Below are positions 7,736 through 9,486 of a stretch of 41,827 nt of DNA, piece after piece. Under the pieces are notes generated by a model. The model was given only the letters and a program-made list of their open reading frames with translations. It was not told where the DNA came from and ran no database searches. Location of the stretch: the UHGV virus genome UHGV-0360402. One strand, written 5' to 3'. The DNA comes from a virus. How positions within the stretch are numbered: the stretch's first letter is position 1; each line of letters opens with the position of its first letter. A program made the translations under genes and the position numbers.

Positions 7736-8392
7736 ATGAACGCTCAACTCATCCCCGTATTCAACGGCACTATATCTAACGAAACAGCCCTACTTTGTAA
7801 TGCCCGCGATCTGCACGCTTTTTTAGGTGTTAAAAAGGTGTTTGCAGCATGGATTACAAATCGCATATCAGAATACGAATTCATTGAAAATCAAGACTAT
7901 ATTTTGCTTTCCAATTTGGGAAAGCAAACATCTGGTAGAGGCGGCCACAACCGCAAAGAGTACCACCTCACCCTTGATACAGCCAAAGAGCTGGCGATGG
8001 TCGAGCGTAACGAAAAAGGTCGCCAGGTGCGACGCTACTTCATTGAATGCGAGAAACGTTTAAGACAACAAGAAACAAAAGTGGAGAAGGTCTTGTCAGG
8101 CTTCATGCCCGCCATTATGGAGGCGATCAAGCTGGAAGACAAAAAAGAATACAGCGCCCCACTGAAGCCCGGCTACCGTAGCCTGATTCATTCGCCGTCT
8201 GGTGTTCTCGGCCTGACGGAGAACTCACTGCTGATGAATTTGCTGAACCAGTTACAGGAAGACGGGCACGACGTATCGGGCGCGGCGGCGGAACTGACCA
8301 CCATGTTCTGCTACATCGTCGGTGTGAGCAAATGCCTGCGTGATATCCAGACCCACGCGGAGTACATCAACGACAAGGCAGGGTTCTTCTGA
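7736..8392 (+). CDS. Antirepressor-type protein: AntA-like N-terminal domain fused to shared C-terminal module (218 aa)
   Basis: GGAG RBS; N-terminus matches AntA-type pattern ([39 protein letters not shown]); C-terminal 78 aa near-identical to C-terminus of 9256-10194 product. Confidence 0.8.
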
Positions 8393-8416
8393 CAGAACGG
8401 CGGCACAGGGATGTGC
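8163..8416. repeat. Inverted repeat, left arm (pairs with 9232-9486)
   Basis: About 254 bp, roughly 96% identical to reverse complement of right arm; covers the 3' coding end of the antirepressor plus 25 bp past its stop. Confidence 0.85.
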
Positions 8417-8464
8417 CTTTAAATAATTCTGTACGATTGCAGACTGGGGGTGAATAGCGTACTA

Positions 8465-8479
8465 TTACCTTAAAGGTAA
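8465..8479. promoter_or_regulatory. Operator-like palindrome TTACCttaaaGGTAA
   Basis: Identical to site at 7357; overlaps -10 of candidate promoter TTGCAG-17-TACTAT (8437-8465). Confidence 0.6.
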
Positions 8480-8491
8480 AGGAGGCGCGAT

Positions 8492-8659
8492 ATGACAGCG
8501 TTGAAAAATCGTACTCAGCACAATGAACAAGCCAAGCAATGCTGGGATGTCATTGGAAAAGTTATGCTTGGCCGCGCAAGCAAAGAGCGCGACAAGGATA
8601 TGGTTTACCAGACAGGAACATCTTTCAGCGACTTCAAGGCGGCATTTCGCTCCAAATAG
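8492..8659 (+). CDS. Small hypothetical protein (55 aa), first gene of IR-flanked cassette
   Basis: AAGGAGG RBS; below ORF-track size cut-off; GC and codon use phage-like (CGN arginines). Confidence 0.55.
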   Translation: MTALKNRTQHNEQAKQCWDVIGKVMLGRASKERDKDMVYQTGTSFSDFKAAFRSK

Positions 8660-8679
8660 AAGCACATTAGGAGTTTGTC

Positions 8680-9120
8680 TTGAAGTTTAACATTAGAATA
8701 TCTAATAGTTTTCTAAATGGGGAAAGCAACACCCCTTTCGCTGTAGACGGACCTTTCCTTACTGACGATGAAATAAAAATCATACAAAGGTTTTTAGAAG
8801 ATGTTGCCAATGGAAGGGCGCTTGTTGGAAAAAACAAGCCATCGTGGGTTGATGATAACCATGATAAAATTCCCGGCTCAGACAATTATGAGCAAGAGAA
8901 TTATTGGCATTATCATTGTGGGCCAACATGGTATCCAAACACATTTAAGAATTATACCATTAACTTAAATTTCAACCCTGGCGGAATGCATTCTAATGAA
9001 TGCATTCATTATGCAAAAAATGATAATGAAATTGTCGTTGTTGGATTTTCAAGAGAACACATACCTTTCCTTTCATCAGATGGAAACGACAATCCGCTTT
9101 TTTATGATGAAGAAGAATAG
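8680..9120 (+). CDS. Hypothetical AT-rich moron protein (146 aa); C-terminal motif faintly RelE/ParE-like
   Basis: TTG start with AGGAG RBS 6 nt upstream; about 30% GC; all four Arg codons AGA/AGG; strong terminator follows. Confidence 0.6.
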   Translation: MKFNIRISNSFLNGESNTPFAVDGPFLTDDEIKIIQRFLEDVANGRALVGKNKPSWVDDNHDKIPGSDNYEQENYWHYHCGPTWYPNTFKNYTINLNFNPGGMHSNECIHYAKNDNEIVVVGFSREHIPFLSSDGNDNPLFYDEEE

Positions 9121-9140
9121 CCCGCGGCGCGGGCTTTTTT
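9119..9140 (+). terminator. Rho-independent terminator
   Basis: gcccgc/gcgggc stem plus T6. Confidence 0.8.
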
Positions 9141-9180
9141 GTGTCTGCGGATTCCCACCCAGGCGGCGGTGGCATTCGTT

Positions 9181-9205
9181 AAAAACAAGGCCGCGAAAGC
9201 GGCCT
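9181..9205 (-). terminator. Rho-independent terminator for antirepressor gene
   Basis: aggccgc-gaaa-gcggcct stem; T-run on minus strand. Confidence 0.7.
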
Positions 9206-9217
9206 GTGACATGTCAC
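9206..9217. repeat. 12-bp palindrome GTGACATGTCAC (copy 1 of 3)
   Basis: Exact copies also at 27730 and 30181. Confidence 0.8.
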
Positions 9218-9231
9218 GATAGTTCAGTTTT

Positions 9232-9486
9232 GCACATCCCTGTGCCGCCGTTCTGTCAGAAGAACCCTGCCTTGTCGTTGATGTACTCCGCGTGCGTCTG
9301 GATATCACGCAGGCATTTGCTCACACCAACGATGTAGCAGAACATGGTTGTCAGCTCCGCCGCCGCGCCCGATACATCATGCCCGTCTTCCTGTAACTGG
9401 TTCAGCAGATTCATCAGCAGTGAGTGCTCCGTCAGGCCGAGAACACCAGACGGAGAATGAATCAGGCTGCGGTAGCCGGGCTTCAG
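9232..9486. repeat. Inverted repeat, right arm (pairs with 8163-8416)
   Basis: Reverse complement about 96% identical to left arm. Confidence 0.85.

Follow-up and report, generated by a model that had tools for sequence, protein, structure and literature searches.

The window analysed here is the UHGV virus genome UHGV-0360402 over its full length of 41,827 nt, and the element of interest is a cassette of two small genes, coding for proteins of 55 and 146 amino acids (aa), which lies between two convergent antirepressor genes, one of the AntA type and the other of the P22 Ant type (Table 1). The region resembles E. coli phages and prophages of the Uetakevirus group (epsilon15/phiV10-like), including phiv142-3, HEMP4, TL-2011b and phiV10, and the cargo region is best explained as an accessory-gene ("moron") slot in the composite secondary-immunity region of such an E. 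coli prophage. The overall interpretation which we favour, and consider on balance probable, combines this slot with an inverted repeat that plays a passive role, and with a toxin-antitoxin-like pair of RelE-type fold under the control of the prophage repressor. Within the library that was searched, the literature contained nothing on this cassette or its proteins.

Variable cargo and inversion at the antirepressor junction

The border between conserved and variable sequence was located by aligning six loci, which are conserved from the antirepressor C-terminus through a palindromic operator, and diverge directly after it into either the 55/146 cassette or a cassette with a YafO-family toxin. 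The segment that follows the stop codon of the left-arm antirepressor gene, referred to here as the pad (about 100 bp, represented by a 103-bp query), is made up of a hairpin, a promoter-like site and the TTACCTTAAAGGTAA operator, and is present in 299-312 of the 5426 complete E. coli genomes to which all genome counts refer. The hairpin, which all related loci retain, was not called by the terminator scan, because it is not followed by a T-run. The cargo junction sits just past the operator, outside the arm of the inverted repeat described below, and exchange of cargo at the conserved pad is the best explanation for this arrangement. It defines a compact junction for the swapping of toxin-like cargo in Uetakevirus prophages of E. 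coli, composed of the antirepressor C-terminal domain, hairpin, promoter and operator.

Behind the same pad we found a 59-aa or 108-aa open reading frame (ORF) combined with a YafO-family toxin (PF13957, 26.3 bits), a 210-aa protein without family, a DUF4760 protein, and a 66-aa ORF, so that the search for different cargo between or behind the same arms in related prophages, suggested in the first-pass annotation of the window, had a positive outcome. The 55/146 cassette itself occurs in 77 genomes, always on the chromosome and with both genes present in every one of the 77, and no copy was found on the plasmids in PLSDB. Only six genomes have the full arm-cargo-arm arrangement; most carriers of the cassette are single-armed, so that cargo can evidently be exchanged without the bracket. 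Whatever the cargo, the slot is usually closed by a 53-aa signal-peptide gene (WP_000708858.1), which is intact in UTAK-6, TL-2011b and others, and of which the window retains a remnant.

In agreement with the first-pass annotation, both ORFs are present between the arms, all four arginine codons of the 146-aa gene are AGA or AGG, and convergent terminators were called by the scan at 9119-9135 (plus strand) and 9205-9188 (minus strand); the GC content of about 30% that it had given for the 146-aa gene has to be corrected to 35.6%, as compared with 47.0% in the 55-aa gene and 47.7% in the window. With a pad in some 300 genomes, at least five types of cargo, a promoter-like site, terminators and atypical GC content, the region has the attributes of a moron, or variable slot.

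The arms that surround the cassette in the window form the one long inverted repeat reported by a repeat search of positions 6500-11500. They measure 258 nt each, are 96% complementary and lie 815 nt apart; a direct count gives 11 mismatches in 258 positions (95.7% identity), far above chance expectation, and extends by a few nucleotides an earlier and essentially correct description of a 254-bp repeat (8163-8416 and 9232-9486, about 96% identity). As had also been proposed, the arms are the 3′ ends of the two antirepressor genes, which are identified by their Pfam AntA and P22_AR_N domains: each arm consists of 234 nt of coding sequence, stop codon included, and 24 nt of 3′ flank, the left one covering the last 77 or so codons of the AntA-type gene. 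Towards the N-terminus the two proteins are unrelated to each other, while their common C-terminal domain matches phrog_450, an 88-aa family of unknown function, and 10 of the 11 mismatches are synonymous, leaving a single amino-acid change (N/H) in the encoded C-termini. The repeat thus exists because two convergent antirepressor genes share a C-terminal domain of about 77 aa, and is best explained as a by-product of this sharing, serving as a passive substrate for general homologous recombination. An assembly artefact was considered and rejected, as several complete genomes have the identical architecture.

The shared domain also occurs elsewhere. A third, free-standing copy is encoded at 6328-6585 (85 aa, 43% identity to AntA residues 137-210, E 6e-17), with its own operator-like site at 6237, and in related loci the N-terminal domains AntA, BRO-N, ORF6N and P22_AR_N are all found on the same C-terminal domain. 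Strains 315 (L027 4890-5201) and TUM9803 (L028 4759-5145) contain P22_AR_N ant fragments without the C-terminus, each of which adjoins another antirepressor gene ending in the arm, which points to further arm-mediated rearrangement and swapping of N-terminal domains. The inverted repeat illustrates how convergent genes that share a domain come to provide recombination substrates by which immunity regions are reshuffled.

Direct evidence that the arms recombine was found by comparing two related prophages. In UTAK-6 the order is antA>55>147>53><ant, and in ETEC4085 it is ant>55>147>53><antA, with identical protein accessions for AntA and the cargo. In blastn alignments the flanks are colinear at 99.5-99.8% identity, while a 1521-bp arm-cargo-arm segment is reversed at 98.5%, with the overlaps that mark the breakpoints confined to the arms. 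Such a clean inversion, with its breakpoints inside the arms, means that arm-mediated recombination has happened. Single-nucleotide differences in the arms form a mosaic. Between one arm and the other there are 15 such differences in UTAK-6 and four in ETEC4085, whose ant arm is of the antA type at most of these positions along the repeat, and the best explanation is that recombination has occasionally inverted the segment and homogenised the arms. A synthetic query for the inverted junction matched two genomes, ETEC4085 and ETEC1749, the latter of which also holds a convergent YafO cassette. In addition, the 210-aa cargo follows AntA in strain 98889 and the P22-type Ant in SCU-387. The opposite orientation that the first-pass annotation had proposed to look for in related prophages is therefore present (UTAK-6 versus ETEC4085, ETEC1749, and SCU-387 versus 98889), and its suggestion that the payload can be swapped or inverted by homologous recombination is supported by cargo variation and by breakpoints internal to the arms, with the qualification that inversion is rare and most carriers have only one arm.

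An inverted repeat that brackets a cassette occurring in both orientations in nature could also represent the ends of a programmed invertible switch, of the Gin/Hin/Cin or shufflon type, that alternates between expression states. We rejected this explanation as highly improbable. The arms are 258 bp of coding sequence under purifying selection, rather than short recombination sites, this cassette lies downstream of the P22-type ant in only two of the 5426 genomes, and the majority of its carriers have a single arm. Moreover, whenever the cargo is inverted, the promoter and operator turn with it, so that its orientation should not switch expression, and no recombinase or invertase gene was seen among the neighbouring ORFs inspected around the segment. 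For the latter two reasons the inversions are attributed to rare general homologous recombination, and inversion looks passive rather than programmed.

A paired family of small proteins

The 146-aa protein had no match in Pfam (E <= 1), NCBIfam or PADLOC, and the PHROG collection placed it only in a family of unknown function. Its AlphaFold2 model is confident (mean predicted local distance difference test, pLDDT, 90.5; predicted template modelling score, pTM, 0.86) and displays a RelE-like alpha/beta fold. The modelled elements follow the order beta 4-7, helix 29-43, beta 52-54, beta 75-79, beta 108-113, beta 117-124 and an S..H.PF tail, which reads as a RelE core to which two insertions and an acidic tail have been added. 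The first-pass annotation had recognised no family beyond a faint RelE/ParE-like motif in the C-terminus, and had recommended profile HMMs and structure prediction for both proteins. Neither protein had a match to a structural or housekeeping family in the libraries scanned, and as regards the 146-aa protein, the lack of a library family and the RelE/ParE-superfamily fold, as modelled, were upheld, while a sequence-level link was not, as no match was obtained to any RelE/ParE profile (ParE_toxin, YafQ_toxin, YoeB, HigB and similar).

A word-indexed search for relatives yielded 34 proteins, all annotated as "hypothetical", in Enterobacterales and Pasteurellaceae, and tblastn separately yielded one in a Vibrio phage. 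An exhaustive profile search of 1.84 billion proteins increased the family to 116 clusters at 50% identity, found in podovirus, P2-like and filamentous prophages of several Gammaproteobacteria and Neisseriaceae. In an alignment of 74 diverse members, no variation was seen at H77, H79 and H127, and F11, G50, N52, K53, Y78 and Y111 are at least 90% conserved; the three histidines and N52, K53, Y78 and Y111 are located on strands 52-54, 75-79 and 108-113 and in the C-terminal segment of the predicted structure. A fold and a candidate active site (H77/H79/H127) can thereby be assigned to a family that has no Pfam, NCBIfam or PADLOC model.

The 55-aa protein likewise had no Pfam, NCBIfam or PADLOC match, and no DNA-binding domain was detected in it. 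Its model consists of one helix (residues 2-41) and a short second helix (45-53), at a pLDDT of 71.5. The two genes are separated by a 20-nt gap containing a ribosome-binding site, and in all of the 18 related loci inspected from other species a partner gene is located directly upstream on the same strand; in a Vibrio filamentous phage (inovirus) a 50-aa partner abuts the 146-aa homologue, and in Erwinia, Aeromonas and Enterobacter the partner has 50-92 aa. Aligned partners share a module of about 50 aa, EYKK..D.VLLSR…S..DF+.A, in which R28 is invariant, and in the longer partners similarity to the 55-aa protein is limited to the last 50 or so residues. Several Pasteurellaceae loci have, next to the pair, a gene whose product was read as similar to the P2 baseplate protein gpV. 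Natural fusions of the two proteins were sought among cluster members of 193-195 aa and rejected, as these are mis-called or frameshifted ORFs. The organisation is therefore that of a two-gene operon with a small, co-inherited upstream partner, as in type II toxin-antitoxin systems; the DNA-binding antitoxin domain by which such operons are autoregulated was not found, and the promoter carries instead the palindrome TTACC-N5-GGTAA, which recurs throughout the prophage.

In our best reading, the pair constitutes a toxin-antitoxin-like module with an invariant His-His-His (plus Lys/Tyr) constellation, representing a new family within the known RelE/ParE kind. The 146-aa protein would act as a RelE/YafQ-like RNase toxin, probably in association with the ribosome, and the 55-aa protein would neutralise it by binding, via its conserved helix and C-terminal motif.

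Operators and the proposed mode of action

The window contains 13 copies of the motif TTACC-N5-GGTAA, as compared with 0.83 expected, at positions 6237, 7357, 7450, 8465, 26694, 29884, 29902, 33645, 33707, 35966, 36014, 36726 and 36788. The sites cluster around a cI-like helix-turn-helix gene (36084-36668), with three of them between a 76-aa ORF and the cI-like gene, and two flanking a TTGACA promoter just downstream of it; others are found upstream of the c4/antA leader (7357 and 7450) and at the cargo promoter (8465). Further sites precede the small terminase gene and replication genes, a scatter which resembles the dispersed C1 operators of P1. At both the c4/antA promoter (TATCAT|TACC, 7445) and the cargo promoter (TACTAT|TACC), the last T of the -10 hexamer is also the first T of the operator, and the PL-like promoter near cI has almost this geometry, its hexamer TAATTA directly abutting the operator. 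UTAK-6 has other sequence at the promoter site, and yet retains a -10 hexamer, TAATAT, at the same distance from the operator. From this distribution we infer that the prophage repressor uses the TTACCTTAAAGGTAA-type palindrome as its operator, and that its regulon includes antA and the cargo.

Since no DNA-binding domain could be detected in the partner, and an operator that also flanks the cI-like gene overlaps the promoter, it would be the prophage repressor, and not the antitoxin, that controls transcription of the cassette. The module would then be silent, or expressed at a low level, in the lysogen, and switched on together with antA upon induction or infection. If the operator indeed places toxins under the prophage repressor, such modules would act at induction and not in the resting lysogen, unlike what is usually assumed of toxin-antitoxin and defence genes in prophages.

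A number of observations weigh against this interpretation. With respect to the toxin assignment, the 74 relatives gave nothing in Pfam, NCBIfam or PADLOC either, sequence and profile searches of PDB (with 29- and 74-sequence profiles) found nothing meaningful, hhalign comparisons of the family with E. coli YafQ and with the YafO cargo were not significant, although the WHYH motif aligned to the expected strand, and the Foldseek E-values of the model are weak (0.24-1); the viral structures in BFVD provided no useful match for the model. With respect to the pairing, the partners in Pasteurellaceae and Neisseriaceae have 160-211 aa and a hydrophobic N-terminal segment (e.g. L016 3438-3995), which is unusual for an antitoxin, and one 3.5-kb Logan contig (L036 1451-2078) has a frameshifted version of the 55-aa gene, with a 65-aa product, next to an intact 146-aa gene. 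This frameshift may be an assembly error; if real, it would mean that the 146-aa protein is tolerated without its partner. With respect to control by the repressor, the operator-controlled promoter that the first-pass annotation had read as TTGCAG-17-TACTAT is present together with its operator, but matches the consensus at only 7 of 12 positions (3/6 and 4/6), below the threshold of the consensus scan, which did not list it. The proposed binding of the cI-like protein is read from the distribution of the sites, and a search for a heteroimmune phage with the pad found none, the pad being confined to E. coli Uetakevirus relatives.

Some of these points would be accommodated if the 146-aa protein were not a toxin, but used its RelE-like fold as, for example, an RNA- or ribosome-binding regulator or a lytic anti-defence factor, with the 55-aa protein as a co-factor. 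The absence of sequence-level membership in any toxin family, the two large insertions and acidic tail not found in classical RelE toxins, the long Pasteurellaceae partner with its hydrophobic N-terminus, and the contig with a broken partner gene are all in line with such a role. We nevertheless judge it quite improbable, as the three invariant histidines, together with Lys and Tyr, are positioned where YafQ/RelE toxins bear their catalytic residues, judging by the order of secondary structure elements and by the YafQ literature, pairing with the partner is strict, and the sister cargo behind the same pad belongs to a recognised toxin family, YafO.

Defence is a common role of the toxin-antitoxin pairs found in prophage hotspots, and the cassette could alternatively be an anti-phage defence or superinfection-exclusion (abortive infection) module, expressed in the lysogen, with infection by another phage setting free the RelE-fold protein. 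In favour of this, its two genes form a small, AT-rich and mobile unit in a variable prophage slot that also hosts the YafO toxin and other cargo without known function, and P2-like Pasteurellaceae prophages and a Vibrio inovirus carry the same module. However, PADLOC-DB 2.0 had no match for the 55-aa protein, the 146-aa protein or any alternative cargo of the slot. Moreover, the operator overlaps the -10 hexamer and start of the only evident promoter, which is a geometry of repression, as at the antirepressor and PL-like promoters, and low expression in the lysogen is therefore to be expected. A lysogen-expressed defence function thus appears unlikely, if less so than a non-toxin role.

Within the favoured interpretation of a RelE-fold pair under repressor control, a more far-reaching version can be put forward as a tentative and rather doubtful possibility. 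The 55/146 pair may have founded an unrecognised family of RelE-fold toxins in the regulon of the prophage master repressor, with an RNase that fires only at induction or upon infection by a sister phage, in the service of host shut-off, competition between prophages or counter-defence; the pad would then be an undescribed Uetakevirus hotspot that trades induction-timed toxins (YafO, DUF4760 and 210-aa cargo), movable between two antirepressor operons by arm recombination. In either form, the cassette is a sound lead for a bench test, and not a new category of system.

Immunity-region context and related systems

The locus is a composite of a P1-type immI region (operator, c4/isrK RNA, antA) and a P22-type one (mnt-like, arc-like, sar, ant), arranged convergently. 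In the P1-type part, operators at 7357-7371 and 7450-7464 precede the immI leader, which has a folding z-score of -5.1, and in which an a1/b1 target element accompanies the isrK-like RNA, with an Rfam score below its gathering score. On the other side of the c4/antA promoter region, a divergent gene (6608-7336, minus strand) codes for a 242-aa protein (phrog_6762), with two Cys-rich repeats in its C-terminal half that resemble the zinc-ribbon motifs of endonuclease VII, Lar and Stc1. The Mnt-like gene is followed by a very AT-rich ORF (11029-11640, 27-34% GC, annotated as 187 aa in relatives), without a Pfam match and with only a weak ThsB/TIR-like PADLOC match (E 0.0058), which may be a second moron. 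With regard to antirepressor function, the ZX5 paper reports that an overexpressed BRO-type antirepressor promotes lytic growth, and nothing more on the topic (PMC9782041).

Table 1. Positions of the genes, RNAs, repeats and regulatory sites of the antirepressor region in UHGV-0360402.
Feature	Position	Strand	Basis or remark
P1-type immI leader	7488-7686	+	a1/b1 targets, isrK-like RNA and C4 RNA; upstream of antA
isrK-like RNA	7501-7577	+	Rfam 67.7 bits (gathering 50)
C4 antisense RNA	7602-7686	+	Rfam 61.2 bits (gathering 45)
AntA-type antirepressor gene, 218 aa	7736-8392	+	Pfam AntA PF08346, E 4.2e-26; PHROG anti-repressor families
Left arm	8159-8416	+	3′ end of AntA-type gene
Hairpin GGCACA-GGGA-TGTGCC	8402-8417	+	just past antA stop; invariant in six-locus alignment
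Promoter-like site TTGCAG, 17 nt, TACTAT	8437-8465 (-35 8437-8442, -10 8460-8465)	+	read from sequence
Palindromic operator TTACCTTAAAGGTAA	8465-8479	.	overlaps -10 and transcription start
55-aa partner gene, putative antitoxin	8492-8659	+	phrog_8607, function unknown
146-aa RelE/ParE-fold protein, putative RNase toxin	8680-9120	+	TTG start, AGGAG 5 nt upstream
Terminator-like GC-rich hairpin	9119-9135	both	terminator scan; overlaps stop codon of 146-aa gene
53-aa gene remnant (…GGGGIR*), last 39 nt	9144-9182	+	192-bp deletion in window; blastn gap at L004 4043-4234
Terminator of ant gene	9205-9188	-	terminator scan
Right arm	9232-9489	-	3′ end of P22-type ant gene
P22-type antirepressor Ant, 312 aa	9256-10194	-	Pfam P22_AR_N PF10547, E 2.5e-45; phrog_524/245 anti-repressor Ant
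sar antisense RNA	10196-10263	+	Rfam 45.2 bits (gathering 43); at or overlapping ant 5′ end
Arc-like ORF, 67 aa	10267-10470	-	Pfam/PHROG scans
Arc/Mnt-like ORF, 153 aa	10525-10986	+	Pfam/PHROG scans; divergent from Arc-like ORF

Comparison of the 146-aa protein with RelE, YafQ, YoeB, HigB and ParE shows that it is most reminiscent of the YafQ-DinJ system, with conserved His, Lys and Tyr residues that are predicted to lie on the sheet and C-terminus, and a small partner gene directly upstream. It differs in that no similarity in sequence to these families, or to the Pfam models for them, was detected, and in its size, 146 aa as opposed to about 85-95 aa, with insertions at approximately 55-74 and 80-107 and an acidic tail. 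The partner finds its closest parallel in the PaaR2-PaaA2-ParE2 system of E. coli O157 prophages, in which PaaA2 is a tiny helical antitoxin without a DNA-binding domain, and a separate repressor governs transcription. The two systems are not similar in sequence, and in place of a dedicated third gene, the presumed regulator here is the cI-like repressor of the prophage, acting at a shared operator. The YafO cassettes of TL-2011b and other prophages occupy exactly the same pad and slot downstream of an antirepressor gene, and also have a small upstream ORF, but neither the 146-aa family and YafO nor the 55-aa and 59-aa partners are homologous. The chromosomal yafNO genes (dinB-yafN-yafO) are SOS-induced, which parallels the expression at the time of induction proposed here.

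As for the slot, it shares with phage morons, with the P2/P4 hotspots and with the mosaic boundary sequences of lambdoid and P22-like phages the conserved flanks, the interchangeable cargo of lower GC content with its own promoter and terminator, and the recombination at shared sequence blocks. It is set apart from known morons and hotspots by its location between two antirepressor operons, where a shared protein domain provides the inverted repeat on either side of it, and by a cargo promoter that bears a repressor operator; none of its cargo matches a catalogued defence system. The immunity region that surrounds it recalls the c4-icd-ant arrangement of P1 in its C4 and isrK-like RNAs with a1/b1 targets upstream of antA, although no icd homologue was identified, and the mnt-arc-ant-sar arrangement of P22 in the sar RNA and the Arc-like and Mnt-like genes at ant. 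In contrast to either phage, both types of immI are found here in a single podovirus prophage, facing each other and joined by a common C-terminal antirepressor domain.

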